From Acidobacteriota bacterium (GTDB taxonomy: Bacteria > Acidobacteriota > JAAYUB01), in the NCBI GenBank assembly GCA_018001935.1, contig JAGNHB010000017.1, forward strand, positions 784-64,783: a DNA stretch of 64,000 nucleotides. The letters run 5' to 3'. Every line of letters begins with the position of its first letter. Position 1 is the first letter of the stretch. This document shows positions 36 to 58,200 of this stretch, piece by piece. The position numbers and the translations under genes were made by a program. The notes beneath the pieces are model-generated. The model was not told where the DNA came from, ran no database searches, and saw nothing but the letters and a program-made list of their open reading frames with translations.

Positions 36-2504
36 TTGAACCGGCGGCCGGCGGTGAGCCTCTTCAGACGTCCTGCCGCTCCATCCGGAAGCTGGAATGG
101 ATGCAGAAACGCCTGGAAGCGAACAGTTTCACGACCTTCTGGCCGTAGCGGGCGGCGGGCCATGCCTGACGTTCTCTCCGTCAAAACAGCCGTTTGGCAC
201 TTGACCGTCTGGACGAAAGACGCGGAATCCCCCTGCAGCCGCTTGGCCGCCATGCTGAAAACCCGGGGGAAAGAACTTTCTCCGAGCAGGATTCGCCTGT
301 CCCCCCCCTTGGAGATTCTGGACACCCATCCTCTGCCTGTATCGGCACTGCGTGAACAGGCGGACGAATTGGTTCTCCCCAAACCGGTCTTTTTTGAGAA
401 CAGATTGTACGAGTTCGATTTCCAGTTTTCTGGGGACATGGTCGATCTGCAGCCCCGGGTCGTCCACTGGAGGAAGGACATTGAGGACGGGTTCCACCAG
501 GCTGGAAAAAACCTGCGAGGGGGCATCCATTTCGGCAACGACATCGGGTGGTTCCGACTGGGCCTCGAATTCAGCTTAGGCGGGGCGCGCACCAGACAGC
601 ACCTCTCCTTTGAAGTTTTGCCGATCAAGATGGACTTGGACGGCGATTTCGGCATGATCTGCAAGGATGTGGACGCCGAATACCCGCTTTGGCGGCTTTC
701 TTTCGCCAGGAAGACGGAGCTGGAACTCGCCTCGTCGCGCTGGCCGTACGAGCGGTTCCCCTTGCTCTGGCTGGCTATGTTCCGGGTGCTCCGCCAGGAA
801 CTGGAGGATGCCGTTCGGCTGATCTGCCGATCACCTCACGCCCGGCTTCTGCCGGAAGGGCGTTTCCTGTGCCCGGACCGATTGCGGGGAAAGCTGCCGT
901 CGAAGCAGGAGGAGCGGGTGACCCGGGACCGCATGAACGGAGATCTGCACCGCCGATATCGGGTGGAAACCCGTCGGCTCTCGGTAGACACCCCGGAAAA
1001 CCGCTTTGTGAAGATGGTCCTGACCCGGTGCACGCGTGAACTGTCCGGCTTGGTCAGAAAAGCGCGGCAAAGTGACAGGGCCCCGGACCAAGGGCGGCTC
1101 AGCGATGCGTTTTTCCGAGAACTCCAGTCATGGTTGAAACCCTTGAAACAACGGCTGTCCGAACCACTGTTCCGGGAGACCGGTGATTTTGCGGGGCTGG
1201 CACACGAGTCGTTGGTGCTGCATTACCGAGCCGGCTACGCCAGGGTGTACCGCATATGGCAGGAACTCAAGCTCTACCTCGACCTGTTCGGACAGCGGGC
1301 GTCTGTCTGCCTGAAGTCCGCCGCCGAACTTTACGAGGTCTGGTGCCTGCTGGAAATTCGACGAATGCTGCTCTCCCTCGGGTTTGTTGAATCTATGGCC
1401 AGACGGGGGTCGCTGAAGACCTCCGGCCTGGAAAAAAAACTCGAGGACGGCATGGGGACCGCTTTCTGCTTCACCCGCCGCGACGGTCTGGAGGTCCGGC
1501 TAGCCCATGAACCGCTGTTCGGATTTTGGAATCAGACGGACACCCGGGGTATCTTTTCCTGGACTACGCCACAGAAACCGGACATTCTGCTGGAGGCGTC
1601 GTTTCCCGGCGGCCGCAGAATCCGTTGGGTTTTCGACGCCAAGTACCGTCTTTCTCCAGACGAAACCGGCGAAGACCGCATCCCCGAAGACGCCCTCAAC
1701 CAGATGCACCGATACCGTGACGCGCTGATCCATCTCGAACCGGCGGATGACGGGGTGGCCGAAAAAAGCCGTCCGGTGGTCGGCGCCTTCGTCCTGTACC
1801 CCGGGTTCTACGATGAAATTCTAAGGCCGAATCCGTACGAGGCGGGGATCGAAGCGGTAGGCATCGGCGGCTTCCCGATGTTGCCGGGGAGGGAGAATCG
1901 CTGGCTCAGGGCGTTTCTGAAGGAAAAATTCAGCGACCTTTCCGATGGCTATCTCACGGAGCATATTCCGGAATTCGACGAGCACCTGCTGCACGAGTCG
2001 GTGCGCATCGCGCCCACGGGGCTGAGATTGGCCCGCTACGGCGACCTGGTTCTGGCCGCCTCGCTGGGCGGGACCGCGGGCAGGGACGGCGCATATGTCG
2101 ACCGCTTTCTGACAGGCACGGCCAGCTGGTACCACATCCCGGTCAGCACCACTGACAAGAAAATCGCTCGAACCGTCATGCGCGAACTCCGATTCTGCGC
2201 TGTCGCTGTCCATCGCCCTGACATCCACGACCGATGCATCGAGTATTTGTACGACGTCCTTTCGGTCCGCCGGGTGAAGCGGTGTGAGCTGACCGTCGAG
2301 CAGGCCGGCAAGGTTGAAACCAGCAATCGGAACGACTATTGGCTTCTGCGGCTGGGCAATTCCAGGCGCCTCAAGGAACTGGTGAGCACGGGCGGAACCC
2401 GGCACTTCCGATTCCGACTGACCGGCGCCGCTGAAATCCTCGCTGCCTGTCGGTGGGATAACCTTCCGGATCGATACCCGCGCATCAGTTGCCCTGCGGA
2501 GTGA
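36..2504 (+). CDS. McrC-like PD-(D/E)XK nuclease-family protein (DUF2357/DUF524-like); N-terminus may continue upstream of the window
   Basis: 822-aa ORF with high GC3. It carries TPENRF (DTPENRFVKMVL) and D...E-A-K-like motifs (PDILLEASF...WVFDAKYR), typical of restriction-endonuclease-fold proteins of the DUF2357/DUF524 type. A 320-bp AT-rich gap follows. Confidence 0.6.
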   Translation: MNRRPAVSLFRRPAAPSGSWNGCRNAWKRTVSRPSGRSGRRAMPDVLSVKTAVWHLTVWTKDAESPCSRLAAMLKTRGKELSPSRIRLSPPLEILDTHPLPVSALREQADELVLPKPVFFENRLYEFDFQFSGDMVDLQPRVVHWRKDIEDGFHQAGKNLRGGIHFGNDIGWFRLGLEFSLGGARTRQHLSFEVLPIKMDLDGDFGMICKDVDAEYPLWRLSFARKTELELASSRWPYERFPLLWLAMFRVLRQELEDAVRLICRSPHARLLPEGRFLCPDRLRGKLPSKQEERVTRDRMNGDLHRRYRVETRRLSVDTPENRFVKMVLTRCTRELSGLVRKARQSDRAPDQGRLSDAFFRELQSWLKPLKQRLSEPLFRETGDFAGLAHESLVLHYRAGYARVYRIWQELKLYLDLFGQRASVCLKSAAELYEVWCLLEIRRMLLSLGFVESMARRGSLKTSGLEKKLEDGMGTAFCFTRRDGLEVRLAHEPLFGFWNQTDTRGIFSWTTPQKPDILLEASFPGGRRIRWVFDAKYRLSPDETGEDRIPEDALNQMHRYRDALIHLEPADDGVAEKSRPVVGAFVLYPGFYDEILRPNPYEAGIEAVGIGGFPMLPGRENRWLRAFLKEKFSDLSDGYLTEHIPEFDEHLLHESVRIAPTGLRLARYGDLVLAASLGGTAGRDGAYVDRFLTGTASWYHIPVSTTDKKIARTVMRELRFCAVAVHRPDIHDRCIEYLYDVLSVRRVKRCELTVEQAGKVETSNRNDYWLLRLGNSRRLKELVSTGGTRHFRFRLTGAAEILAACRWDNLPDRYPRISCPAE

Positions 2505-2794: not shown

Positions 2795-2830
2795 GACAAT
2801 TTCACCTTGACAGGTGTAAATGGGAAGTGT
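2795..2830 (+). promoter_or_regulatory. sigma70-like promoter (TTGACA-18 bp-TAAATG) in AT-rich gap upstream of the SNF2 helicase gene
   Basis: gacaattgacaatttcaccttgacaggtgtaaatggg has a -35 TTGACA and a -10-like TAAATG at 18 bp spacing. Local GC is far below the window average. Confidence 0.3.
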
Positions 2831-2982
2831 TGGTTGTTTTCCCATGGCTTAGATGCGGGAACCCGGGCATGTCCCGGGCAGGGTTCATCTTGCCGATCCC
2901 CCGCCGGGGTCGGGACCGGTTAAACGGAATGGCGGCCTCGCGGTCGGCGCCCTGGCGGAGAGTTTCTCCGGGGAAAGGACGG

Positions 2983-6174
<3,192 letters not shown>

Positions 6175-6195
6175 CCGCTGTGGAGGAGGTACGCC

Positions 6196-7725
6196 ATGAT
6201 GGTGCAGAACACTGGCGGGAAGGGCCCTGGCGGGGCCGGTGCCGTCCGGACCGCCCGGGATGCGGGCCTGACCCGTCCCCTCGATCTTCACGTCGGGCTG
6301 GATTTCGGGACGTGCTTTACCAAGCTCTGCTGCCGCCACCTCGGGCGGGACGAGTCCTTCGTGGTCCGGTTGGGCGTCCTGGGGACGGGCCTGGAGGACG
6401 CCCTGATCCCGTCCGTGGTCGGCATCGCCCCGGACGGTCGGCTGGTCGGGGGCCTGACGGAAACCGAGTGGCGGAAGAACCCCGAGCCTTCGCTGCAGCG
6501 GGTCCGCTTCCTGAAAATGCTCCTGGCCGGCGGACGTGTCCCCCATCGGGCCATGAGCTGGGCCGGCGTCAGCGGCCTGAAAACGGCCGACGAGGACCGG
6601 ATCCGCGCCCTCAGCACCTACTTCATCTACCGGGTTCTGGACCGCTTCCGGGGTTGGGCCCGCCACCATTTTCTCGGAGCGGGCAGCACCCGGCCGCTTC
6701 GTCTGTCCTTCAGCCTGGGCGTGCCGGTGGAACAGTTCGACTCCCCGGCGCGGAGGACCTTCCAGGGGGTCCTGAACACCGCCTGCCGGTGGCTGGACGG
6801 CGGACCGATCGACGGCCCCTGGACGCTCGAGCGCGCGCTCAAGCTCATGGCTTCCGGCGAGGGGCGGGAATCCCGGGAGACCGTCGCGGACACGGTGCCG
6901 GAGATCGCCGCGGCGGTCCACGCCTTCCTCGCGTCCCGGCAGTCCCAGCGGGGGGTCTACTTCTACCTGGACATCGGCGGGGGAACCCTGGACGCCGTGG
7001 CCTTCAAACGGTGGGACAAGGACGGCGAGCCCCAGGTGAATTTCTACTGCGGCAAGGTGGAGCCGCTGGGCCTGGATGCCCTGTCCGAGGCCGCCGCGCG
7101 GCGGCTGGACCGGGAGCCGGGAAGCCTCCTGCACTACCTGTCGCGCTCGGAGCCCGGACCCGGGAAGCGTGCGGTTAACCCCCCGGCACCGCGTTTCAGC
7201 TGGATGAAAGGGAAGGAGCCCGCCATGCGGTCCACGGGCCCGGCGAGTCCTGGCCCGGTCGCTGACGAGGGCATTTTTACGCTGCTCGAGCCGGAGCGAC
7301 GGCTGATTCACCGCCAGGTGGGGACCGTGCTGGCGACCTCCCTCAAGAAGGACCCCGTCGCCTTCCGGGCCGGCCGGGGCGACAACCCCTTCCAGAAAGA
7401 CCCGGGGGAGAAGATCTGGGTTTTTTCCGGCGGCGGCGGGGCGGCGTCTACGTTCTATGCGGAGGCCGTGGACGAAGCCTGGCGGCTTCGGCTGAAGCAG
7501 TGCGGGCTGCCGGGGCTCAGCCGCCAGGTCATCGAGGTCCCGGGAGACCTGGAGTTTCTCGGGCTGCCGGCCAGCAGTTACCGTCGCTTCGACATCGCCT
7601 ACGGCTTGTCCATCCCGGAGGAGGACCGTTTCCGGGCCTGGATGCCGAGCCTCTTCGAGCCGCAGGAGGAAGATTCCGGCGCGGCCCGGGGGCTGGACCA
7701 CGTCGACACCCACGACTGGCAGTAG
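6196..7725 (+). CDS. Hsp70/actin-fold (ASKHA) ATPase, NBD-only, no Hsp70 substrate-binding domain
   Basis: Phosphate-1 GLDFGTCFTK, IPSVVGI (compare Hsp70 TPSVVAF), phosphate-2 DIGGGTLDAVAF. RBS GGAGGAGG sits 8 nt upstream. It lies 21 bp after the SNF2 stop. Confidence 0.65.
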   Translation: MMVQNTGGKGPGGAGAVRTARDAGLTRPLDLHVGLDFGTCFTKLCCRHLGRDESFVVRLGVLGTGLEDALIPSVVGIAPDGRLVGGLTETEWRKNPEPSLQRVRFLKMLLAGGRVPHRAMSWAGVSGLKTADEDRIRALSTYFIYRVLDRFRGWARHHFLGAGSTRPLRLSFSLGVPVEQFDSPARRTFQGVLNTACRWLDGGPIDGPWTLERALKLMASGEGRESRETVADTVPEIAAAVHAFLASRQSQRGVYFYLDIGGGTLDAVAFKRWDKDGEPQVNFYCGKVEPLGLDALSEAAARRLDREPGSLLHYLSRSEPGPGKRAVNPPAPRFSWMKGKEPAMRSTGPASPGPVADEGIFTLLEPERRLIHRQVGTVLATSLKKDPVAFRAGRGDNPFQKDPGEKIWVFSGGGGAASTFYAEAVDEAWRLRLKQCGLPGLSRQVIEVPGDLEFLGLPASSYRRFDIAYGLSIPEEDRFRAWMPSLFEPQEEDSGAARGLDHVDTHDWQ

Positions 7726-7743
7726 GGATTGGCCAGCGTTGAT

Positions 7744-7838
7744 GCGTTCGTAAAAAGTACCATCACCCTCCGGGTGATGGCTCAAACAAAGGCTTTACAG
7801 ACACTTTTCCGTCCGTTTTCCGACTTTTTGCGAGGACA
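7744..7838. repeat. IR-L: ~92-bp repeat unit (GC hairpin ccatcaccctccgggtgatgg + T-run on minus strand) in inverted copy relative to 11885..11975
   Basis: The reverse complement matches 11885..11975 nearly base for base (cgcaaaaagtcggaaaacggacg.aaaagtgtctgtaaagcctttgtttgagccatcaccc.gagggtga.ggtactttttgcg). Confidence 0.8.
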
Positions 7839-8286
7839 TCAGCGTTGAGAAATAACTGCTTTTGCTGCAAAAATTTCGCCCCTGGCGGGGCGAGGCGTTC
7901 CCCGCCAGGGTCGACCGGGCCTGCGGTTTTCCGGCGCCGCCTCCGGGGCGCAAGGATTTTCAAATGGCCCGCAACCGGCGGGAGTACCCCCTGCCGGGGG
8001 AACACCCGCCGGCTAATCTCTTTTATCCCTTCGGGATAGGGATTGCCTGGGTGCGGGTTGTTCGCGTTGTGGTTACACAGAATGAAGCCCTGACGGGGTT
8101 CTCCCCGTGCGGTTTGTTCGTCATCGGCCCGGGTTACCCGGGGCGTTCGAAGCGGAGGACGAACCCCTTGCCCGCACCGGCCTTGCCCCGGGTCCCGAGC
8201 GAAGCGCCCCTTTTCCCGCCAGCGTCCCGCCCGGATCCCGACGTCGTCCCGCCCGCGCCCCGCCCGGATCGCGGCCGTTGGCTCTT

Positions 8287-8455
8287 CACCCCGTCAGGGG
8301 TGAAATGTTTGTAGAATAAGCGGTTATCAAGAGTTCCCCCCGCGCGCCGCCGGCCCGGGATGGCGCCCCGCGGCACGATCTCCCCCCGGCGGCGCGCGGG
8401 AGGGGGTGTTTTATAAACCGTTTTACTACAAATGTTTCACCCCTGACGGGGTGAG
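8287..8455. mobile_element. Complete MITE/REP-like composite element (copy A): 30-bp terminal inverted repeats caccccgtcaggggtgaaatgtttgtagaa flanking a ~70-bp GC palindrome cccccgcgcgccgccgg...ccggcggcgcgcggg
   Basis: TIRs sit at 8287-8316 and 8427-8455 with 2 mismatches. The internal hairpin is shared with copies at 22291, 35100 and 60269. Confidence 0.6.
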
Positions 8456-8675: not shown

Positions 8676-11600
8676 CTACTCGCGGATGCAATTGCGCCCG
8701 TCGCGCTTGGCGCGGTAGAGGGCCGCGTCCGCGGCGGCGACGAGGTCCGCCGGGGCGGCCCGTTCGTCCGGCTTCACCCAGGCCGCGCCGATGCTGACGG
8801 TGACCCGGGGTGACACCGGGGAGGCCGGGTGGGGCAGCCCCAGCGCCTCGACGTGGCGGCGGACGAGTGCGGCGGAGATCAGCACGCTCTCGCGGTTTGC
8901 CCCCGGGACGATCACGGCGAACTCCTCCCCGCCGTACCGGGCGGTGATCTCGCCGGCCCGGGTGTGGGAGTCGGCGATCGCCCCCGCCACGAGCCGGAGA
9001 CACTCGTCGCCGGCCTGGTGCCCCAGCGCGTCGTTGTACTGCTTGAAGTGGTCGATGTCCAGGATCAGCAGGCCCAGCGCCTCCCGCCCCCGCAGGGCGC
9101 GGCGCCACTCCTCGTCCAGCGCCTGGTCGAAGCGCCGGCGGTTCGCGATCCCGGTCAGCGGGTCCTGCTGGGAGAGCTGGTCGAGCCGGGCGTTCGCCGC
9201 CGCCAGTTCCGCGGTGCGCAACGCCACCACCTTCTCGAGCGCCGCCTTCTGGCGGGAGAGATGCCGGGTGCGGAACCGGTAGAGGAACGCCCCCGACAGG
9301 ACCAGGAGCACCATGACGCCCGCCCGGAACCCGACGTGCTGCCACCAGGCGGGGAGGACCTCGATGGGGATCTCGAGGGGGGCGGTCTCGAGGCCGGCCG
9401 CGTCGCGCCCCTTCACCTGCAGGAGGTAGCGCCCGGGCGGAAGCGCCCCGAAGACCCGCTCGTTCGTCTCGACCCAGGGGCCCGGGTGGGGGTCGTAGCC
9501 CAGGAGCTGCCAACTGAAACGGTTCTCGTTTTCCCGCTGCCAGGACAGGAGGGCCACCTTGAACGACAGCTCCCGGGTCGAGGAGGGAATGCACACCGGC
9601 GCCCCCGCCACCTCCCCGCCGTCGGCCTGCACCCGCATCAGCCGCAGCGGTTTGGGGTGCTGCTCGGGGACCGCCCCGGTCGGGTCGTAGACCGACAGGC
9701 CGCCCATGGTGCCGCACCAGTACCGGCCGAGCGTGTCGACGAACTGGGCGTTGGTGTTGCACTCCTCGTGAAGGAGGCCGTCGCGGCGGACGAACACCCG
9801 TTCGTCCCACCCGCCGGACGCCTTCGGGGTCAGCAGCTGCACCCCCGCGTCGGTCGACACGAAAACCCGCCCCCGCGGGTCCCGGATCGCCTGGTAGGCG
9901 GTGGGGACCGGCGGGCGGGGCAATTCGTCCCCCGGCAGCACCCGCGGCCGGAGCGGGTCGGTGATGTCGACGCGGATGATCCCGCTGTTCAGGCTGCCGG
10001 CCCAGAGTATGGGTTTCCCCTCCCGGTCCGGGATGAGCGTGAGCCCCAGCAGGTGGATGTCGGGCAACCCGTCCCCCCGGCCCAGGAAGGTCCAGTCGGT
10101 CCCGTCGAACCGGGCCAGGCCCTGGCTGGTGGTGGCCCACAGCCACGACCGGTCGTCGGCGTCTTTCGACGCCACGATCCGCGTCACCTGCAGGCGTTCG
10201 GAAGCGGACGACGGAAAGGCGGCCCAGCGGCCTTCGCGAAACCGGTACATCCCGCTCTTGCGGGTCGCCACCCAGAGTTCCCGGGCCCCGTCGAAAAACC
10301 GGGAAAGGACGTCCATCACGTGCTGGCCGGCTTCCTTGGGCCAGGGCGTCGGAACGGTTTCGAAGACGGGCCCCTCCCGCACCCGCACCAGTTCCCCGGG
10401 GACGACGGCCGTGAAGAGCGTCGGCTGCCCCTTTTCGTCGGGCGCCCGGACCAGCAGGCGGGAGTTGGAACCCGGCAGGGTGCTGTTCGAGCTGTTGAAG
10501 GTCCTCCACTGCCCGTCCTGGTAAAGGCCGAGGCCGTCACCCGAGGACGCCACCCAGAGGCGCTCGCCGCCGTGCCCGTCCGGCTCCGCCAGGACCCCGA
10601 AGACGCCGTTGGACCGGGAACCGAGGAGCGACACGGTCCGCCAGGGGCTGCCGCCGAGGACGGTCCGCGCCAGCCCCCCCTCGGTGGCCAGCCAGAGGAC
10701 CTCGATGCCCTCGGGGCTCCTCCAGAGGTGCACGTTGCGCACCGCATTCGAGGGAAGCCCGTGACTGCGGCCGAAGGCCTGAACCTGCTCCCCGTTGACG
10801 CGCACCAGGCCGCCGCGCGTCGCCGCCCAGAGGGTGGGCTCCCCGCCGGGAGCGGCGCCGGCCGCCAGGGAGTAGACGATCCGGGTCTCCATCCCGGCCT
10901 CGGTGTCCGCCAGGTTGCGGATGCCCTCGTCGGTGAGCCGGAACAGGCCGGCCCCGTAGGTCGCGATCCAGAGTTCCTCCACCCCGCGGCGACGGACCGT
11001 CAGGAGGTCCTGCACCTGGGCCACCTGCGCCGGGGTGAACCCCGGGGCGCTGAAGCGCTGCCAGGCGCCGCCGCTCTCGCGATACCAGAGCCCTTCGTTG
11101 TTGGTGGAGACCCACAGGCGTTCCCGACCCCCGATTTCCCAGGTTCGGGCCAGGCCGTTGAGGCACCCGGGCGGAAGCTGCCGGTTGCCGGGGTCGGCTC
11201 GCCACCGCCCCGCCACGCGCTGGAAAAGGCCGGCGTCCAGGGTCAGCGCCCAGGTTTCCGTTTCCCCGACGCGGACCGGGACTTCGACCACCCGGAAAAT
11301 CCGTCCGGCCGGGAGCCCGCTTTCCGGCCCCTCGATGTGCCAGCCGGCGGCATCGAGCCGTCCCAGAGCGGAACTGGTGGACGGGGCCCAGAGGTTCCCC
11401 TCGTGGTCGAGCAGGAGGTTTTCCACCACCCCCTGGAGGCCGGGCACCCGGACGGGCTCCCAGCGGTGGCCGTCGTAGCGGTAGAGGCCCTGGGGCGAAC
11501 CCAGCCAGACAAAGCCCACGGCATCGGTGGCCACGGAGACGACCGTGGTGTCCGGCGCGCCGTCCGAGGCGGTGAAGGTCCGGAACGCCGGCAGGCCCAG

Positions 11601-11708
11601 CCGGGACAGGTCGAGCGGGCGGAGCGCCGCGGCCCCGCCGTCCCACCCAGGGACAAAGGCGAAGAGGGCAACCGGGAGAAGGCGGCGGAGGATGGTCAAT
11701 CGCGTCAT
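8676..11708 (-). CDS. Sensor diguanylate cyclase: signal peptide, beta-propeller/Y_Y_Y periplasmic repeats, TM, GGDEF domain
   Basis: The C-terminus has DHFKQYNDALGHQAGDECL and RYGGEEFAVIV (GGEEF). The N-terminus is MTRLTILRRLLPVALFAFVPG. Propeller-like repeats: WLGSPQGLYRYDG, WVSTNNEGLWY. Confidence 0.85.
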   Translation of the reverse strand: MTRLTILRRLLPVALFAFVPGWDGGAAALRPLDLSRLGLPAFRTFTASDGAPDTTVVSVATDAVGFVWLGSPQGLYRYDGHRWEPVRVPGLQGVVENLLLDHEGNLWAPSTSSALGRLDAAGWHIEGPESGLPAGRIFRVVEVPVRVGETETWALTLDAGLFQRVAGRWRADPGNRQLPPGCLNGLARTWEIGGRERLWVSTNNEGLWYRESGGAWQRFSAPGFTPAQVAQVQDLLTVRRRGVEELWIATYGAGLFRLTDEGIRNLADTEAGMETRIVYSLAAGAAPGGEPTLWAATRGGLVRVNGEQVQAFGRSHGLPSNAVRNVHLWRSPEGIEVLWLATEGGLARTVLGGSPWRTVSLLGSRSNGVFGVLAEPDGHGGERLWVASSGDGLGLYQDGQWRTFNSSNSTLPGSNSRLLVRAPDEKGQPTLFTAVVPGELVRVREGPVFETVPTPWPKEAGQHVMDVLSRFFDGARELWVATRKSGMYRFREGRWAAFPSSASERLQVTRIVASKDADDRSWLWATTSQGLARFDGTDWTFLGRGDGLPDIHLLGLTLIPDREGKPILWAGSLNSGIIRVDITDPLRPRVLPGDELPRPPVPTAYQAIRDPRGRVFVSTDAGVQLLTPKASGGWDERVFVRRDGLLHEECNTNAQFVDTLGRYWCGTMGGLSVYDPTGAVPEQHPKPLRLMRVQADGGEVAGAPVCIPSSTRELSFKVALLSWQRENENRFSWQLLGYDPHPGPWVETNERVFGALPPGRYLLQVKGRDAAGLETAPLEIPIEVLPAWWQHVGFRAGVMVLLVLSGAFLYRFRTRHLSRQKAALEKVVALRTAELAAANARLDQLSQQDPLTGIANRRRFDQALDEEWRRALRGREALGLLILDIDHFKQYNDALGHQAGDECLRLVAGAIADSHTRAGEITARYGGEEFAVIVPGANRESVLISAALVRRHVEALGLPHPASPVSPRVTVSIGAAWVKPDERAAPADLVAAADAALYRAKRDGRNCIRE

Positions 11709-11884
11709 GGGTCCTGGGCCTCACCCTGTGATCCGGACGATCGGCGGATATTCTAACAGATATCGGGGGTCCCGTGAAAACCCCGAAAGCAGGTTGAAAG
11801 AGGTTTGGCCGGAATCCCCGGCAACCCGCGGGGGGAGACTGAATTGTGACCCCATTCCCCCGCCGGTATGGTAAGATCGAGGGG

Positions 11885-11975
11885 TTCGCAAAAAGTCGGA
11901 AAACGGACGAAAAAGTGTCTGTAAAGCCTTTGTTTGAGCCATCACCCGGAGGGTGAGGGTACTTTTTGCGACCGT
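11885..11975. repeat. IR-R: inverted partner of 7744..7838; on plus strand reads as hairpin + TACTTTTT intrinsic-terminator-like end
   Basis: Near-identical reverse complement of IR-L. The hairpin ccatcacccggagggtgagggtacttttt lies 180 bp upstream of the FAAL gene start. Confidence 0.8.
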
Positions 11976-12156
11976 GTCAGGCTTGCCCGTCCCGGCCTCG
12001 ACACTCTCGGCACCGCTCTGGAAGGCGTCGCCACGGCGGCCGACCCTCGAGGAGGACAAACATGCGGGAAGTGTGTTTTCTCGTCTCCGACGACGCCGAC
12101 CGGGGGACCGGCCGGCTGAAGGCCGTCAGGACGGGGTGCGGCGGGGGGCGACGTTC

Positions 12157-15090
12157 ATGAGGGAGACCGCCGGGCCCGCCACCCTGGTCGACGTCCTGCG
12201 GCATCACGCCCGGATGCAGCCCGAAAGGGCGGCGGTGGTCTTCCCCGGCGCCGACGGGGCCCCGGAAACGACCCTGACCTACGCCGAACTGGACCGCCGA
12301 GCACGCGCCGCCGCCGCCGCCCTGCAGGCCCGGGTCAGTCCCGGCGATCGCGCGCTGTTGCCGCTCGAGTCGGAAGAGGGCTTCCTGACGGCCTTCCTGG
12401 GTTGCCTTTACGCCGGGGTCGTCGCCGTGCCGACCGCGCTGGAGGCCTCCCGCGACGCGGCCGGCCCCCGGCTGCGCGCCATTCTCCAGGACGCCACGGT
12501 CAGCCTCGTGGCGGCCACGGAAACGGCACGGCGGCACCTGGCCCCCTGCCTGAAGGACCCGGCCGTCCCGCCGGTCACCTGGCTGTCTCTCGACACCGCG
12601 CCGCCGCCCGGAACCGAGGACGACTGGCAGCCGCCGACCCTGGGCGGCGGCGCCCCGGCCCTGTTGCAGTACACCTCCGGTTCGACCGGGACGCCCCGGG
12701 GGGTCCGGGTCGACCACGACAACCTGTCCTACGACCTGCGGGTCATACGGCAGATCCTGGATTACGACCCGGGTTCCACCCTCGTCAACTGGATGCCCCT
12801 CTTCCATGACGGCGGCCTGATCCTGATGACGCTCGCCGCGCTTTACAGCGGCGCGCGGCTGGTTCTCATCTCCCCGGCGGCCTTCATCCGCGACCCCCTG
12901 GGGTGGTTGCGCCTGGTCTCCCGCTACGGCGCCTGCAGCACGGTCGGCCCGAACTTCGCCTACGACCTGTGCGCCCGCCGGGCCGCGCCCGAACGGTGCC
13001 GGGAGCTGGACCTGCGGTCCCTGCGGTGCGCCATGAACGGCTCGGAGCCCGTCCACGCCGCCACGCTGGAGCGGTTCAGCCGCGCCTTCGCCCCCTGCGG
13101 TTTCCACGCCGACGCCTTCACCCCGAATTACGGCCTGGCGGAGGCCACCATCCTGGTCACGTCCAAAATCCTCTCCGACCCGCCGCTGATCCAAAGCTTC
13201 GACGCCCGGGGCCTGGACGACGGCCGGGTCGTGCCGGTCGCCGCGGGGGCCCCGGACAGCCGGCCGCTGGTGGGCTGCGGAGCGCCCTGCCCGGGGCTGA
13301 CGATCGCCGTCGCCGACCCCGAATCCGGCCGGCGAGCCGCCCCCGACCGGGTCGGCGAAATCTGGGTGGCCGGCCCCGGCGTCGCCCGGGGCTACTGGAA
13401 CCACCCGCGAACCACGGCCCGCGTGTTCGGCGCCGTCCTGGCCGACAGCGGGGAGGGCCCCTTCCTGCGGACCGGCGACCTGGGCTTCCTTCACGACGGC
13501 AACCTGTTCGTCGCCGGCCGGATCAGGGACCTGGTCATCATCCGCGGGCAGAACCACTACCCGCAGGACATCGAGGCCGCGGCCGGCGAGTGCTCCCCCT
13601 GCCTGCGCCCCGGGGGCGGCGCGGCGTTCCCGGTCACCGTGGACGAGGAGGAGCGGCTGGTCGTCCTGCACGAGGTGCGCGCCGAGTGCCGGGAGGGCCT
13701 CGACGGGCCGGGGGTGATCCGGGCGATCCGGCGGCGGCTGGGCGAACGTCTCGGGCTGGCGGCGCACGCCGTCGCCCTCGTGGCGCCGAAGAGCCTTCCG
13801 AAGACCACCAGCGGGAAACTCCAGCGTTTCGCCTGCCGCGAGGCGTTCGAGGCGAATCGCCTGGAAACCTGGGCCGCATGGCGGGAAACGGCGGCGCGGG
13901 AAGAAGAAGAGCCGGGACCGCGCGAAGCGGCTTCCCTGGCGGCGCTCCTGGCTGACCCTCCCCGGCTGGAAACCGCCCTGACCGCCCTGGCGGCCAACGT
14001 GCTGCGCGAACCCGCCCTTCAACCGGGGGACAACTTCTTCCACTCGGGCGGGGATTCCCTCCGGGCCGCCCGGTTCATCCTGGCGGTGGAGGATGGGCTC
14101 GGGGTCCGGGTCGCGGCGGCCTTCCTCGAAAATCCCACCGTCGCCCACCTGGTCCGCCGGGTCACCCGGCCGCCCGGGCCGGGCGAGGGGCCGTCGACCG
14201 GGCCGGTACCGGGGGAGGACGGCGGCCCGCCGCTGGGTCGCCCGCCGCATCCTGCCCGGAAGGCCAGGTGGTGGACCCGGGGGCCGGTCTGCGGCGGCCG
14301 GAACCTGCCGTACGGGCCGGGTTTCTTTCTCCAGCGGGTGTGGCTGGGCGTACCCGGGATGCGGCGGCTCCTCTTTCGCCCCGGTATCGCCGCCGTCCGG
14401 CGATGGAGCGAACTGGTCGGCGAAGAGAGCCCCTCCCGGGCCGTCCGTCAAAGCCTGCTCACCAACACCTGGATCCACTGGCGGAACCGGGTCCTGGCCG
14501 CGCCGCCGGCGGCATCGCCCTGGCTGCGGCTGCAGGGTGACCTGGCCGGTCTGTGGCCAGGAGGCGGGAGCGTGGGCACGATCCTGCTCCTGCTTCACAG
14601 CCCGCTCAGCGGGCTCTTCCGGCGCTGCCTCGCGGCGGAGGGCCGCCGCTTCGTGCTCATCCGCGGCGAGGACGAAGAGAAGTCGACCCAGGCACAGAAC
14701 CGCTCGATGCAGGTCTACCTCGCCCACACGGCCTTGCGGGACGGGGGCGCCGTGGTGATCTACGGGGACGGCGGCAAGGGCCGGCAGGGCGTCACCGTCC
14801 CCTTTTTCGGCGCCCCCCGCACGTTCCGGCCGGGGGCGGGCGAACTGGCGGCGGAGACCGGGGCTTCCGTCGTCCCGGTCTTCGGCGTCCTGGAGGGCAA
14901 CGGCCGGGTGGTCTTCGAGATCTGCCCGCCCCTGGCAGCCGGGGGGGGATCCCCCCACGACCAGGCCCTGTCCCTGACGCGGGGCTATGCCGCGCTCGTG
15001 ACCGAGCGCTGGCCAAGGGTGTACCCCTTCCAGAGCTGGAGCAACCTGGAGCGGCTGCTGTTCCTTCGGGCACGGGACGGCGGCCGCTGA
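12157..15090 (+). CDS. Tri-domain fatty-acyl-AMP ligase (FAAL) - acyl carrier domain - LpxL/LPLAT-family acyltransferase
   Basis: The adenylation domain has YTSGSTGTPRGV and a GDLGFLHDGNLFVAGRIRD core. The phosphopantetheine site is FFHSGGDSLRAARF. The C-terminus reads VIYGDGGKGRQGVTVPFFGAPRTFRPGAGELAAETGASVVPVF, like lauroyl/myristoyl acyltransferases. ATG at 12157 was chosen over the ORF-track start 11953, which overlaps IR-R. Confidence 0.75.
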   Translation: MRETAGPATLVDVLRHHARMQPERAAVVFPGADGAPETTLTYAELDRRARAAAAALQARVSPGDRALLPLESEEGFLTAFLGCLYAGVVAVPTALEASRDAAGPRLRAILQDATVSLVAATETARRHLAPCLKDPAVPPVTWLSLDTAPPPGTEDDWQPPTLGGGAPALLQYTSGSTGTPRGVRVDHDNLSYDLRVIRQILDYDPGSTLVNWMPLFHDGGLILMTLAALYSGARLVLISPAAFIRDPLGWLRLVSRYGACSTVGPNFAYDLCARRAAPERCRELDLRSLRCAMNGSEPVHAATLERFSRAFAPCGFHADAFTPNYGLAEATILVTSKILSDPPLIQSFDARGLDDGRVVPVAAGAPDSRPLVGCGAPCPGLTIAVADPESGRRAAPDRVGEIWVAGPGVARGYWNHPRTTARVFGAVLADSGEGPFLRTGDLGFLHDGNLFVAGRIRDLVIIRGQNHYPQDIEAAAGECSPCLRPGGGAAFPVTVDEEERLVVLHEVRAECREGLDGPGVIRAIRRRLGERLGLAAHAVALVAPKSLPKTTSGKLQRFACREAFEANRLETWAAWRETAAREEEEPGPREAASLAALLADPPRLETALTALAANVLREPALQPGDNFFHSGGDSLRAARFILAVEDGLGVRVAAAFLENPTVAHLVRRVTRPPGPGEGPSTGPVPGEDGGPPLGRPPHPARKARWWTRGPVCGGRNLPYGPGFFLQRVWLGVPGMRRLLFRPGIAAVRRWSELVGEESPSRAVRQSLLTNTWIHWRNRVLAAPPAASPWLRLQGDLAGLWPGGGSVGTILLLLHSPLSGLFRRCLAAEGRRFVLIRGEDEEKSTQAQNRSMQVYLAHTALRDGGAVVIYGDGGKGRQGVTVPFFGAPRTFRPGAGELAAETGASVVPVFGVLEGNGRVVFEICPPLAAGGGSPHDQALSLTRGYAALVTERWPRVYPFQSWSNLERLLFLRARDGGR

Positions 15091-15200
15091 TCCCTGTTTC
15101 GTTCCGCCCCGTGTTTTCGGCCCTTGTTCCCACGCCCGCACGCGTTGACGGACCGCTCCGGGCATCGCCCCGAAATCCGGCACGCGACGGCAGAGGCGAA

Positions 15201-35678: not shown

Positions 35679-39920
<4,242 letters not shown>

Positions 39921-39946: not shown

Positions 39947-44212
<4,266 letters not shown>

Positions 44213-55261: not shown

Positions 55262-58200
55262 ATGACTGAACCCGAACGCCCGGACGGTCCCGAGTCTTTG
55301 GACGACCTTTTCGGCCCGGTGAAGGAAGCCGCGGCGTTAGGGCGGAAGCCCTTCAAGTTCCTCGACCCCTACGGTCCCGAGGACGCCGACCTGTTCTTCG
55401 GGCGGGACCCGGAGATCCGGGAGGTCTACGCACGCTACTACGGGAGCCGGCTGCTGCTGGTGTACGGGGAGTCGGGGGCGGGGAAGACCTCGCTGCTGCA
55501 GTGCGGGCTGCGGGGGCGGGTGCCGCCGGAGGAGGCGCTGTTCGTGCCCTTCCGCTCGGGGGAGGACCCGCTCGAATCCCTCCGGCGGGAAGTGCTGCGC
55601 CGCGTGGCGTTCCCCGACGGGGCGCCGGAAGACGACCTGGAGCTGCTGCGGGAGGCGGCGTTCCGGAAGCGCAAGACCCTGGCGCTGGTGTTCGACCAGA
55701 TGGAGGAGTGCTTCCTCTTCGCGCCGAAGGCGGCGCGGGAGCGCTTCGCGAAGGCCCTGGCGGCCTGGATGGCGGCGGGGGTGAACGTCAGGGTGGTGCT
55801 GTCCATCCGGGAGGAGTACCTGGCGCGGCTGGGGGAGTGGGAACCGCTGCTGCCCGAGCTGTACCGGAACCGGCTGTGGGTGCGGCGGGTGGACTTCGGG
55901 GACGTGAAGGAGCTGGTGGAGGGCCCGTGCCGGGCGGTGGGGGTGCCGGTGGAGCCGGACCTGACGGCGGCCGTCACGCGCCTCTTCGAGCGGGAGGCGC
56001 GGGGGGTGGACCTGCCCACGTTCCAGGTGCTCATGGACCGGCTGTACGACGAAGCCTCCACGCGCGGCGAGACGCCGGTGGCCCTGAAGGCGGCGGACCT
56101 CGAGCGCGTGGGCGGCCTGGAGGACGTCCTGGCGGCGTTCCTGGAGCGGGCGGCGTCGGAGCTGCCCGACCCGGCGGCGGGGCGGGAGCTGCTCAAGGCC
56201 ATGGTGTCGGCGGAGGGGACGAAGCTCCGGGCCGGGGCGGAGGCGCTGGCAGCGGGGGCCGGCCTGGACCCGGCGGCGGCGGTCCCGCTGCTGGCGTCCC
56301 TCGAAACCGCGCGGGTGGTGCGCCGGCTGCCGGAGGGTGAGGAGTGGGAGCTGCGGCACGACCGCCTGGCGAAGGTGGTGTTCGGCTGGCTGTCGGAGAC
56401 GGAGAAGGACCTGCTGGAAGCGCGGCGGATGGTGGAGGGGCGTCTGAAGGACTACCAGTCCCGGGGCCTGCTGCTGGACACGGCGGCGCTGAAGGCGATC
56501 GTGCCCTTCGAGAAACCCCTCTCGCGGCACCCGGCCACGGCGGAGCTGATCCGGAAGAGCCGTGAGCACCTCGCGGCCCTCTCCCGCCGCCGGAAGCGCC
56601 TCGTCGCCGAGGTCACGGGCATCGCCTTCCTGGTGCTGGCGCTCTTCACCGTCTGGAACGTCCGCGAGCGCCGCGCGGCGGAACGGGAACGCGATCGGGC
56701 GGAGCAGATGGCTGCCGAGGTTCGGGCAAGCGAGGCGAAAACCACACAAGCCTTCGCTCTTTCCCTCTTCCACCGGATGGAAATCGCCTTGGAAAAAGGC
56801 CGGCGAAACGAGGTCATCTCCCTCCTCGTGGGGGCCATACGGCTATCACGCGCCAATGGGCTTTATCTGGACCGGCTCGTGAATCAATTGACGGTTGTCG
56901 GTATCGCCCTGCCCGTTTCTCCACCCCTGCGTCATTCGGACGAGGTTTGGTACGTCGCCTTCAGCCCCGACGGATCAAGAGTGGCTACGGGATCTGCGGA
57001 CAAGACTGGCCTAGTATGGGATGCGCGGACAGGGGTTGCGTTGACGCCTCCGTTACAGCATGGAGGTCCCGTCAGCGGAGTAGCCTTCAGCCCGGATGGA
57101 GCCAGAGTGGCCACGTCTTCATGGGATGGCACTGCGCGGGTATGGGATGCGCGGACAGGAGCGGCCTTGACAGCCCCGCTTCGCCACGAGAAAGCCGTCG
57201 ACCGGTGTATCACCTTCAGCCCGGATGGAACCCGCCTGGCGACCGGTTCCATGGATAATACCGCTAGGGTCTGGTGTTCACAAACGGGGAAAGCGATTAC
57301 CCCTTCGCTGAAACACGGGGGGCTGGTCTTTGCACTTGCATTCAACCGGGACGGCACAAGGCTGGCAACGGCTTCTTTCGACAAGACCTCCCGCGTGTGG
57401 AATGCCCTGACAGGAGAACCGGTTACGGCTCCGCTAAAGCATGATGACGAGGTTGTGGACGTCGCGTTCAGCCCAGATGGAACCAGGGTGGCAACCGCGT
57501 CGCTTGATAAAACAGTCCGGATCTGGGATGCACGGACTGGCGCGGCGGTGACGGCCCCGCTGATGCATGAAAACAAGGTCTGGAAGGTCGTGTTCAGCCC
57601 GAATGGGAAGCAGGTCTTTTCTTTCACCGACACTTCGACGTATATCTGGAATGCCCAAACAGGTGAGTCGATTGAAATTCCCTTCAGAGATCATCAATGG
57701 AGTTGTGTGGCATTCAGCCCTGATTTGACGAGGGTCCTTTCACAGAATCCGAATTGCGCACGCGTGAAGGACATACGAACGGGAGCCACGGTCACGGAAT
57801 TCATGCAACACAACGCAACCCTCTTGCTGGGGATTTTTAGCCCGGACGGGCAGTGTGCTGCCACGTATTCCAGGGATCAGACGGCTCGCATCTGGGACGC
57901 CCGCGGGAGAGGGGCCCTGCCGATTCCTTTGAATCTTGAGAATCGAGGAACCTGTGCTGCCTTCAGCCCGGACGGGACACGATTGGCGGCGCCAAGCGGA
58001 GATCGTGGGGTAAGGCTTTGGGACACAAAATCCGGAGGGGAGATTCTGCCCTCACTCAGGCCTGAAGGCAAGATAGGTTATATCGGTTTCGACCCGAGAG
58101 GGCTTCGGGTGGCCACCGTGTCCGATGTTGCGGCGCAGCTCTGGGATGCCCGGACAGGGCAACCGCTGTGCGCACCCTTGAGGCTTTCCACCACCATCCG

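Follow-up and report, generated by a model that had tools for sequence, protein, structure and literature searches.

A predicted Hsp70/actin-fold ATPase as the conserved partner of a DrmD-type SNF2 motor in bacteria

The stretch of Acidobacteriota DNA analysed here (the window, 64,000 nucleotides) holds a gene at 6196..7725 on the plus strand whose 509-residue product is, as judged from its sequence and structural model, a stand-alone ATPase of the Hsp70/actin fold (ASKHA superfamily), with an intact active site and no other domain. The gene is real, which confirms an earlier observation on this DNA, and its product belongs to an unclassified family. It lies beside a gene for a DrmD/RapA-like SNF2 ATPase, and the two constitute a two-ATPase module that is self-contained and horizontally mobile. 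In this minimal unit, a DrmD-type SNF2 protein is almost invariably accompanied by a second ATPase, which is unrelated to it and has the Hsp70/actin fold. Such a fold as the conserved partner of a bacterial SNF2 protein was not reported in the literature searched. SNF2 motors themselves recur in bacterial immunity, as DrmD of DISARM, ArmA of ARMADA, ZorD of Zorya, BrxH of BREX, DpdE of Dpd and Hma, and class 1 DISARM is a validated system with DrmD as a component. To our knowledge, the control of these motors in bacterial immunity is poorly understood. The original prediction, an Hsp70-like nucleotide-binding domain (NBD) protein coupled to a helicase, was partly supported.

The ASKHA gene and its product

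A Shine–Dalgarno-like sequence, GGAGGAGG, can be read on the plus strand at 6182..6189, 8 nt 3′ of the SNF2 stop codon and 6 nt 5′ of the ATG of the ASKHA gene. On the far side of the gene, a GC-rich hairpin of 10 bp at 7759..7781, 34 nt 3′ of the stop codon, possibly represents the end of the operon. Apart from this hairpin, a scan for promoters and terminators gave nothing above the level of shuffled sequence, and hairpin sites of this kind are no more numerous than in shuffled sequence, which makes it weak evidence of an operon end.

Single-sequence searches with the ASKHA protein gave no match in Pfam, NCBIfam or the PDB, and its relationships were detected by profile and structure methods alone. 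The AlphaFold model built from an alignment of 95 sequences has a pLDDT of 85.7 and supersedes a run with 5 sequences, which gave 49.8. The duplicated beta-beta-beta-alpha-beta-alpha-beta-alpha core and the four subdomains are present, which places the predicted fold in the actin/Hsp70 branch of the ASKHA superfamily. The ATPase fold extends to approximately residue 485 of 509, and the remaining tail has a pLDDT of 55–68. This agrees with the earlier claim that the ATPase domain stands alone, with the peptide-binding domain and lid absent. The C-terminal 200 residues, which had been described as unrelated to DnaK, instead complete the ATPase fold. Subdomain IIB contains an insertion of approximately 39 residues (318–356; 7147..7263, plus strand) that was modelled with low confidence (pLDDT 24–53). 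This insertion is peculiar to the window protein and is missing in the four closest homologs.

The motifs GxDFGTxxTK, DxGGGTxD and GGGG vary little or not at all among 95 family members, and all of the positions given below lie on the plus strand and refer to the same alignment. The phosphate-1 loop, GLDFGTCFTK (residues 34–43; 6295..6324), pairs with GIDLGTTYS of Kar2/BiP in the profile alignment. Its residues G34, D36, G38, T39 and K43 are invariant, with D36 corresponding to D8 of DnaK. The invariant K107 (6514..6516), in the motif YLKMxLA, is the probable counterpart of the Hsp70 catalytic K70/K71 (IKRLIG), an equivalence that was read by eye from the likeness of the motifs, not from superposition. 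In the hhalign and hmmsearch alignments, the invariant E236 (6901..6903) of PEIAAAV equals DnaK E171 (NEPTAAA), and the phosphate-2 loop DIGGGTLD (residues 259–266; 6970..6993) is aligned to DLGGGTFD, which equates D259 with D194, T264 with T199 and D266 with D201. Within this loop D259, G261 and G263 are invariant, and T264 and D266 are conserved in at least 90% of sequences. The adenosine-binding loop GGGG (residues 412–415; 7429..7440) is aligned to the GGGA loop of MreB, with G413 invariant and both G414 and G415 conserved in at least 90%. The hhalign comparisons with single DnaK and MreB sequences (58% and 78% probability) were used for residue mapping only. The equivalents of D8, E171 and D194, which had been named beforehand as the residues to look for, are all present and invariant, and across the catalytic set D8, K70, E171, D194 and T199 each counterpart is either invariant or shared by at least 90% of sequences.

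The protein had been placed in the ASKHA superfamily close to the Hsp70 NBD. The fold and the motifs uphold this assignment, but the protein matches no curated Hsp70 model. Its identity to the NBDs of DnaK, BiP/Kar2, Hsp110/Sse1 and Ssz1 is 12–17%, and in contrast to Hsp70 it lacks an interdomain linker, a substrate-binding domain and a lid. Whereas Hsp70 works with J-protein and GrpE partners, the near-constant partner here is an SNF2 DNA motor, and neither DnaJ nor GrpE is among the frequent neighbour families of the gene. A canonical Hsp70 (PF00012, DnaK/HscA/HscC) was rejected on the lack of a Pfam or NCBIfam match to the window protein, the lack of an HSP70 match in all 95 members and the missing beta-sandwich domain and lid.

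The SNF2 partner and the conservation of the pair

The SNF2 partner is encoded by an ORF of 1115 amino acids at 2827..6174 on the plus strand and has the Pfam domains SNF2-rel_dom and Helicase_C. Its true start is probably the ATG at 2929 or 2983; conservation among the orthologs starts at residue 79 (coordinate 3061). The Walker A motif GLGKT (residues 207–211; 3445..3459, plus strand) and the DEAH box (residues 324–327; 3796..3807, plus strand) are at least 95% conserved in 66 orthologs. The PADLOC DrmD model PDLC02623 matches the protein over its full length (E 1.5e-277). The NCBIfam model DISARM_DrmD (NF038317) aligns with residues 128–1097, comprising the motor and the C-terminal domain, at 402 bits against a cut-off of 610. 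RapA is the nearest solved structure (E 1.5e-34; NCBIfam RapA E 1.7e-51), with the similarity restricted to the motor lobes. Judged only by eye, the N-terminal segment looks similar to the short Tudor/KOW-like beginning of RapA. These sequence comparisons assign the partner to a sister clade of DrmD. The C-terminal domain (residues 816–1113; 5272..6165, plus strand) has no match in Pfam, nor does its 66-sequence profile find one in the PDB, and is where the ASKHA protein may dock.

The proposed coupling to the SNF2 gene was followed through a survey of co-occurrence, and it holds. A full-length SNF2 ortholog (40–50% identity) is adjacent to and co-directional with the ASKHA gene in approximately 75 of 80 species-representative loci, and immediately upstream of all four metagenomic homologs lies an SNF2 gene encoding about 1000 amino acids. 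The gene order takes two arrangements (37 and 31 loci), with intergenic gaps that are mostly below 60 nt and genes that often overlap. No third conserved gene was found across the 80 loci. Pairwise identities in one protein track those in the other (matrix correlation r=0.91, Mantel 0/999), a mirror-tree signal that is partly expected from common phylogeny. By domain, the SNF2 C-terminal domain has the top correlation with the ASKHA protein (r 0.90, partial r 0.49), and once the motor is controlled for, this domain and the linker co-vary best with it, although similar evolutionary rates could produce such a pattern. In three cyanobacterial loci (L074, L075 and L079), the partner has lost Walker A and/or the second RecA lobe and has kept its N- and C-terminal domains. 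The ASKHA proteins of these loci retain the phosphate-1 and phosphate-2 motifs.

The module is rare and scattered. There are 208 loci among 185,579 species genomes, spread over Cyanobacteria, Alpha- and Gammaproteobacteria, Spirochaetes and Acidobacteria. Carriers of the pair include Sinorhizobium psoraleae, Rhizobium etli SEMIA 471 and Leptolyngbya sp. BL0902, and Mesorhizobium is another native host. A scan of 2.9 million viral contigs returned one weak match, such that the family is virtually missing from phage contigs.

Genomic surroundings and resemblance to known systems

In the window the pair resides in chromosomal DNA, approximately 28 kb from rpoBC. Its neighbours are a McrC-like gene, a 150-aa ORF without matches, a gene for a GGDEF protein and a fatty-acyl-AMP-ligase-like gene. 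Elsewhere the surroundings differ from locus to locus and frequently include defence genes, in a raw tally in which many neighbours are ordinary genes. The same tally includes PDC-S68 (8 loci), HmaB/HmaC, an HKD-SNF2 protein, a type III methyltransferase, GajB-like and DpdF/PsyrT-like helicases, HEPN, Fic, NERD and SNase. The PDC-S68 gene is RecD-like and lies downstream of the pair in Rhizobiales. Plasmid-borne copies adjoin cas1/cas2, toxin-antitoxin genes, XerD and transposases. No conserved effector, whether nuclease, protease, pore or NADase, was found in the module by neighbour families and domain searches.

The McrC-like left neighbour (36..2504, plus strand) combines DUF2357 with a PDDEXK_7 nuclease domain bearing a DAK motif (Pfam E 1.7e-56 and 1.4e-39). 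This gene occurs in none of the 86 other loci and its GC3 (0.73) is lower than that of the pair, and it was rejected as a third component on both counts. The window starts just 5′ of it, so a McrB gene could lie outside the window. The original prediction had been silent on this unrelated nuclease, and also on the affiliation of the SNF2 partner with the DrmD/RapA-like clade.

An Hsp70-like ATPase in a conflict-system context is known from CnuD of the type III CoCoNuT systems, which are of the McrBC type, and the window also has a DUF2357 (McrC N-terminal) gene two genes upstream of the ASKHA gene. CnuD consists of ATPase and substrate-binding domains with HEAT repeats, has degenerate Walker-like motifs, and accompanies a McrB with an NxD motif, CnuH and HEPN (PMC11090510). 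The window protein, in contrast, has invariant ATPase motifs and neither a substrate-binding domain nor HEAT repeats. The DUF2357 protein of the window retains its nuclease motif, and the gene is missing from every other locus. Membership in CoCoNuT type III was rejected, as the ASKHA protein is an ATPase domain only and its motifs are invariant. In searches of the literature on Hsp70, ASKHA or actin-like proteins in association with SNF2, DISARM or defence, CoCoNuT and Aravind's GTPase-centred systems were the only ones to emerge, and the pair is in neither.

PADLOC PDC-M61B is the sole defence-database model with similarity to the ASKHA family, matching 28 of 95 members (best E 6.8e-9). Its match to the window protein is weak and partial (E 4.4e-4, residues 30–107). 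From these scores, PDC-M61B would be a distant paralogous family at best.

Proposed role and competing readings

The favoured reading is that the pair is an accessory two-ATPase module directed against invading or mobile DNA, with a role in phage or plasmid defence or in a related conflict; the chances of this reading are judged to be about even. It draws on the sparse scatter of the loci, the defence genes and mobile elements found beside many of them, the near absence from viral contigs and the sister relation of the SNF2 protein to DrmD. The missing conserved effector, the many ordinary neighbours and the chromosomal setting of the window pair weigh against it. The literature searched held no paper or experiment tying the pair to defence. 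In the proposed mode of action, the SNF2 motor would translocate along double-stranded DNA or a nucleoprotein target. The ASKHA protein would bind to the linker and C-terminal domain of SNF2 and serve there as a regulatory or assembly subunit gated by nucleotide; physical contact through the C-terminal domain is suggested by the genomic data, namely the domain-wise co-variation and the survival of this domain in the motor-less partners. As the module has no conserved nuclease, it would act by remodelling or evicting protein–DNA complexes or in cooperation with adjoining restriction modules. Candidates for such cooperation are the McrC-like nuclease in the window and, at other loci, PDC-S68, Hma or DISARM-like genes. 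A defence role, if borne out, would make the pair a new type of system that lacks a nuclease of its own, and would open a tractable route to the role of the DrmD-like C-terminal domain.

Regulation of the motor by the ASKHA subunit would, if real, give bacteria a parallel to the actin/Arp modules found in eukaryotic remodellers. In its strongest form, the pair would be the prokaryotic counterpart, by analogy and possibly convergence, of the eukaryotic SNF2-plus-actin/Arp modules. The ASKHA protein would then attach to SNF2, at either a helical extension or the C-terminal domain, and gate DNA translocation, and the pair would found a new nuclease-free two-ATPase class of immunity or genome surveillance. 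This extension is speculative and is held to be rather unlikely. The likeness to INO80, SWR1 and SWI/SNF-BAF is one of analogy only, as Arps are not the closest matches of the ASKHA protein, an HSA helix was not identified and the bacterial SNF2 protein is RapA/DrmD-like. Common descent with the eukaryotic modules is neither shown nor likely. If the Arp-like reading were true, the three cyanobacterial loci with motor-less partners would mark the ASKHA subunit as the essential engine.

The readings that compete with an accessory defence module are all doubtful to differing degrees. In one of these, the ASKHA protein is an actin-like filament former of the MreB/ParM type, whose ATP-dependent polymer, together with SNF2, positions, segregates or compacts DNA, for instance in the maintenance of plasmids or mobile elements and not in defence. 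A weak ALP_N match was obtained in one of 95 members (E 0.0018), and Pfam matches to MreB, ParM and FtsA in none. Compared with MreB, ParM, BeeR and FtsA/PilM, the ASKHA subdomains IB and IIB are larger and there are no ParR or membrane-anchor partners. A filament-forming role is regarded as unlikely, if worth keeping in mind.

A place for the pair on the periphery of a class 1 DISARM-type system, with the SNF2 protein as DrmD and the ASKHA protein as an optional accessory, is improbable. This reading draws on the end-to-end likeness to PDLC02623 and the alignment of DISARM_DrmD over the motor and C-terminal domain. At one locus (P0003), with an integrase nearby, a second SNF2 gene, an Eco57I-like methylase and a DrmA-like helicase come after the pair as a DISARM-like set, and a second SNF2 gene stands in tandem at three others (L008, L042 and L073). 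The NCBIfam score, however, falls below the cut-off, and loci with DISARM-like genes have their own separate DrmD-type SNF2. The genes drmA (helicase), drmB (DUF1998), drmC (PLD) and drmMI (adenine methylase) are missing beside the window pair and in most of the 80 loci, and class 1 DISARM as published does not include an ASKHA gene. Membership in class 1 DISARM was rejected on the lack of conservation of these four genes.

A transcription-linked stress module is given a similarly low likelihood. The RapA-like SNF2 protein would recycle or dislodge stalled RNA polymerase, with the Hsp70-like ATPase as a chaperone-like helper and no genetic conflict involved. RapA as the closest solved homolog, the RapA-like start of the SNF2 protein and the lack of a nuclease are all compatible with this. 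A housekeeping factor would be expected to show vertical inheritance and stable synteny, so the sparse, patchy distribution and the variable neighbourhoods, with copies on plasmids and near integrases, speak against it. The RapA match is, furthermore, limited to the motor lobes.

A true component of the Hsp70 system, namely a nucleotide-exchange factor or truncated chaperone working with DnaK/DnaJ, is very improbable. The top structural matches do include Hsp110/Sse1 and Ssz1, atypical Hsp70s that are exchange factors or partners, but the substrate-binding domain and lid are missing, none of the 95 members matches Pfam HSP70, DnaJ, GrpE and DnaK are not conserved nearby in the 80 loci, and the near-constant partner is a DNA motor. 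That the protein is an ASKHA-superfamily kinase of sugars or small molecules is hardly credible: Hsp70 and MreB outscore the kinases by 6–8 Z units, the profile matches among those listed are Hsp70s only, the motifs PEIAAAV (NEPTAAA-like) and DxGGGTxD are of the Hsp70/actin type, a metabolic gene context is missing, and ROK, hexokinase and NagK were rejected as not closest by structure or sequence.

A word-index homolog search had given just 5 proteins, whereas the exhaustive profile search returned 2396 cluster representatives of the ASKHA family. With this number of representatives and no Pfam or NCBIfam model, the family deserves a definition in any case. Its relatives beyond the SNF2-linked clade occur in other contexts, such as a coiled-coil fusion or, at one locus (L028), beside a BY-kinase-like neighbour.

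The SNF2–ASKHA gene pair

The ASKHA protein, an Hsp70/actin-fold ATPase, is encoded by an ORF at 6196-7725 on the forward strand that runs from ATG to stop and specifies 509 aa. As the window is GC-rich (GC 0.60-0.74), long spurious ORFs are plentiful. The ASKHA frame is singled out by its codon-position GC (GC3 0.88 > GC1 0.70 > GC2 0.51), and a 640-aa antisense ORF at 5863-7785 was rejected by the same measure. The three peptides quoted in the original prediction exist as claimed within this frame, with GLDFGTCFTK at residues 34-43, IPSVVGI at residues 71-77 and DIGGGTLDAVAF at residues 259-270. An identical protein has been deposited from an Acidobacteria MAG (MBP7866035.1) under the name “hypothetical protein”. 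The upstream SNF2 gene (2827-6174, forward strand) ends at 6174 and the sequence GGAGGAGG lies at 6182-6189, 6 nt ahead of the ASKHA start codon; thus, the two genes form an operon-like pair.

The predicted coupling to an SNF2 helicase holds well beyond this contig. An SNF2 gene of ~1000 aa is located directly upstream in all four metagenomic ASKHA homologs. When 185,579 species were scanned, each represented by a single genome, 208 loci with ASKHA relatives were found, and in ~75 of the best 80 of these a full-length SNF2 ortholog is adjacent and on the same strand (40-50% identity over residues 79-1113). Among these best 80 loci, the SNF2 gene comes first in 37 and the ASKHA gene in 31, with gaps mostly below 60 nt and overlaps common. 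The pairwise-identity matrices of the two proteins are strongly correlated (r=0.91, Mantel 0/999), as is partly expected from shared ancestry. Clustering of all neighbouring ORFs revealed no third conserved gene. The SNF2 and ASKHA genes are inherited as one unit.

Both ATPases of the pair are intact, one being of the double-stranded-DNA translocase type and the other of the Hsp70/actin fold. The SNF2 partner carries the Pfam domains SNF2-rel_dom and Helicase_C, and its Walker A, DEAH and motif VI are at least 95% conserved in 66 orthologs. Its C-terminal domain (~300 aa) has no relative in Pfam or the PDB, and no effector domain is conserved in the pair. A search of the literature found no description of an SNF2–ASKHA pair. 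It is a well-supported and apparently undescribed two-gene module.

Fold and active site of the ASKHA protein

As a single sequence, the ASKHA protein has no match in Pfam, NCBIfam or the PDB sequences, and PADLOC returns only a marginal match to the candidate PDC-M61B. A word-index search recovered five homologous proteins, from which an exhaustive profile search reached 2396 cluster representatives at E<1e-3 (331 at E<1e-30). The motifs G[IV]DFGTxxTK and DxGGGTxD are near-universal in the 150 best members. Where sources name family members at all, it is as “hypothetical protein”, and Pfam matched no family among 95 members except for one marginal ALP_N. The family is scattered across Cyanobacteria, Alpha- and Gammaproteobacteria, Spirochaetes and Acidobacteria, and is virtually absent from 2.9 million scanned viral contigs.

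With an alignment of 95 family sequences, AlphaFold produced a model with a pLDDT of 85.7 and a pTM of 0.87, as against a pLDDT of 49.8 with five sequences. In a Foldseek search of the PDB, ranks 1-38 are Hsp70-family proteins (DnaK, BiP, Hsp110; E about 1e-11) and rank 39 is MreB. The lower-ranked proteins of the structural comparison include BeeR (20.5), Ta0583 (19.7), ParM (18.2), PilM (18.1) and FtsA (17.8), followed by actin-related proteins at 13-17. All of the 60 PDB matches listed for the family profile are Hsp70 nucleotide-binding domains (best E 8e-7). Mapping to DnaK by hmmsearch and hhalign equates D36, in the phosphate-1 loop, with D8, and E236, D259, T264 and D266 with E171, D194, T199 and D201; K107 in YLKMxLA was matched to K70 in IKRLIG by eye only. 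The equivalents of D8, E171 and D194, the catalytic residues singled out in advance, are invariant in the 95 sequences, as are G34, G38, T39, K43, K107, P177, G261, G263, G292 and G413. Taken together, the structural comparison, profile matches and residue mapping place the protein in the actin/Hsp70 branch of the ASKHA superfamily, marginally closer to Hsp70 than MreB, and indicate that it is catalytically competent as an ATPase. It appears to work like the Hsp70/actin ATPase domain.

The original prediction, which placed the protein in this superfamily close to the Hsp70 nucleotide-binding domain, holds for the most part but needs correcting on two points. The substrate-binding domain and lid are absent as described, with the modelled fold ending near residue 485. 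The C-terminal 200 aa, held to be unrelated to DnaK, are part of the ATPase fold, contributing the helices of subdomain IIB, the GGGG adenosine loop (412-415) and the closing helix. This stretch also aligns to the MreB GGGA loop. The sole idiosyncratic insertion is at residues 318-356, where model confidence is low. Secondly, the protein is equally “actin-like”, and membership of the Hsp70 family was rejected as there is no model match, substrate-binding domain or co-chaperones. An identity with CnuD of the CoCoNuT systems was likewise rejected: unlike the ASKHA protein, CnuD combines ATPase and substrate-binding domains with HEAT repeats, and its motifs are degenerate (PMC11090510).

Many family members carry N-terminal extensions of 250-1000 aa that are coiled-coil-like, e.g., P0043, P0047, P0049, P0055, P0070, P0072 and P0137 (700-936 aa) and P0066 (1454 aa). 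These extensions give only weak, compositional matches to LmuB, JetC, ZorA and myosin-tail models. One fused form (locus L028, 7955-11302) follows a GNVR/ParA-like BY-kinase gene. The extended members and this setting show that the wider family has contexts other than SNF2.

Genomic neighbourhoods and possible function

Three cyanobacterial loci encode a motor-less or inactivated SNF2 derivative directly ahead of the ASKHA gene. The partners in Spirulina sp. CCY15215 (L074, 3362-4795) and cyanobacterium ESFC-1 (L075, 8596-9966) are 457-478 aa long and 32% identical; in both, the motor is gone, leaving the N-terminal segment of SNF2 and its C-terminal domain, with the THPLVKWIE motif. In the 739-aa partner in Spirulina subsalsa (L079, 7817-10033), Walker A is destroyed (AKEEALEQT), the second RecA lobe is missing and the C-terminal domain is kept. 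The ASKHA proteins of all three retain both phosphate motifs (1 and 2). In L074 the glutamate motif and the GGGG-type loop were both found; L075 yielded only the first of these and L079 only the second. Across 66 pairs, with motor divergence controlled, ASKHA divergence follows that of the SNF2 C-terminal domain (partial r 0.49) and linker (0.45), as opposed to the N-terminal domain (0.08). The motor-less partners and this co-divergence suggest the C-terminal part of the SNF2 protein as the region with which the ASKHA subunit cooperates.

The genes flanking the pair vary by locus and are often of defence or mobile-element types, in a raw neighbour listing that is not background-corrected. A RecD-like helicase matching the PADLOC candidate PDC-S68 (E = 0; 1255-1280 aa, at about 11400-15200 in those loci) is directly downstream and co-directional in eight Rhizobiales/Rhodobacterales loci, those named being L030, L033, L039, L040, L041, L056 and L062. 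HmaB and HmaC matches lie directly upstream in Aminobacter-type loci (L030), with HmaC-type neighbours in three loci. The pair, PDC-S68 and HmaB/HmaC may form a larger composite system. Other neighbours include an HKD-SNF2 protein, a type III methyltransferase, GajB-like and DpdF/PsyrT-like helicases, HEPN_Swt1, Fic, NERD and SNase. At one locus the pair is accompanied by an integrase and a DISARM-like trio. Plasmid copies adjoin cas1d/cas2, transposases, toxin-antitoxin genes and XerD. On a Leptolyngbya sp. BL0902 plasmid (L088, NZ_CP046159.1, 8128-13586), an ASKHA gene annotated at 744 aa precedes an “SNF2-related protein”, with transposases on the flanks. This copy is downstream of type I-D cas1d/cas2 across a ~7-kb unannotated gap, which may be a CRISPR array.

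The pair may well have a defence or conflict role, as an accessory module that would target invading DNA or nucleoprotein complexes. More tentatively, the ASKHA subunit might dock on the SNF2 C-terminal region and act as a nucleotide-gated regulator or assembly factor. The outcome could be that complexes are evicted or remodelled, or that the pair works together with restriction modules next to it. The likeness to eukaryotic SNF2-Arp modules is intriguing, as an analogy only.

It is conceivable, if doubtful, that the ASKHA protein instead forms an actin-like filament for DNA positioning. An accessory role in DISARM is unlikely. The SNF2 partner matches PADLOC DrmD (PDLC02623) end to end (E 1.5e-277), but NCBIfam DISARM_DrmD, aligned over residues 128-1097, scores 402 bits against a cut-off of 610, and DrmA, DrmB, DrmC and DrmMI are absent. 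Canonical class 1 DISARM was rejected on these grounds; as published, it has no ASKHA gene, whereas the pair has one. The closest solved relative of the SNF2 partner is RapA (E 1.5e-34), and there is a similarly slight prospect that the pair comprises a RapA-like transcription factor and a chaperone-like helper. That the ASKHA protein, for all its Hsp70-like fold, is a co-factor of the Hsp70 system is highly improbable. A sugar kinase can be dismissed, as sugar kinases reach at most 15.8 in the structural comparison, below the Hsp70 and MreB-type proteins.

Surroundings of the pair in the window

To the left of the pair, a gene at 36-2504 (forward strand) encodes an McrC-like protein with DUF2357 and PDDEXK_7 (PD-(D/E)xK) domains, an intact PD...DAK motif and a 230-aa C-terminal region without assignment. 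An McrB-type GTPase would be expected upstream of such a gene, at the point where the window begins. As it occurs at no other pair locus and its GC3 (0.73) is below that of its neighbours, it looks like a separate acquisition.

To the right, a coding-like 150-aa ORF (7862-8314, forward strand; GC3 0.76) is preceded by a promoter-like site at 7845-7874; Pfam, PADLOC and NCBIfam gave no match for it, and it lacks conservation at other loci. A 1010-aa GGDEF diguanylate cyclase with Reg_prop/Y_Y_Y beta-propeller sensor repeats (8676-11708, reverse strand) is convergent with the 3′ end of the pair. It is followed by a 1045-aa adenylation protein of the fatty-acyl-AMP ligase/PKS-loading type (11953-15090, forward strand; E 1e-124 to 7r7f), which suggests that a locus for a lipopeptide or polyketide lies downstream.

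Both rpoC (35679-39920; confirmed by a PDB match, E = 0) and rpoB (39947-44212; from position and size only) are on the reverse strand, which accounts for the strong negative AT skew at 36-50 kb. Their presence marks the window as core chromosome and, at ~28 kb from the pair, its setting as chromosomal. Further along, a 1309-aa protein (55262-59191, forward strand) has a large WD40 block that spans residues ~556-809 and continues further. There is also a match to the WD40 portion of Apaf-1, and the protein could be of the STAND/NACHT type, with a role in signalling or conflict.
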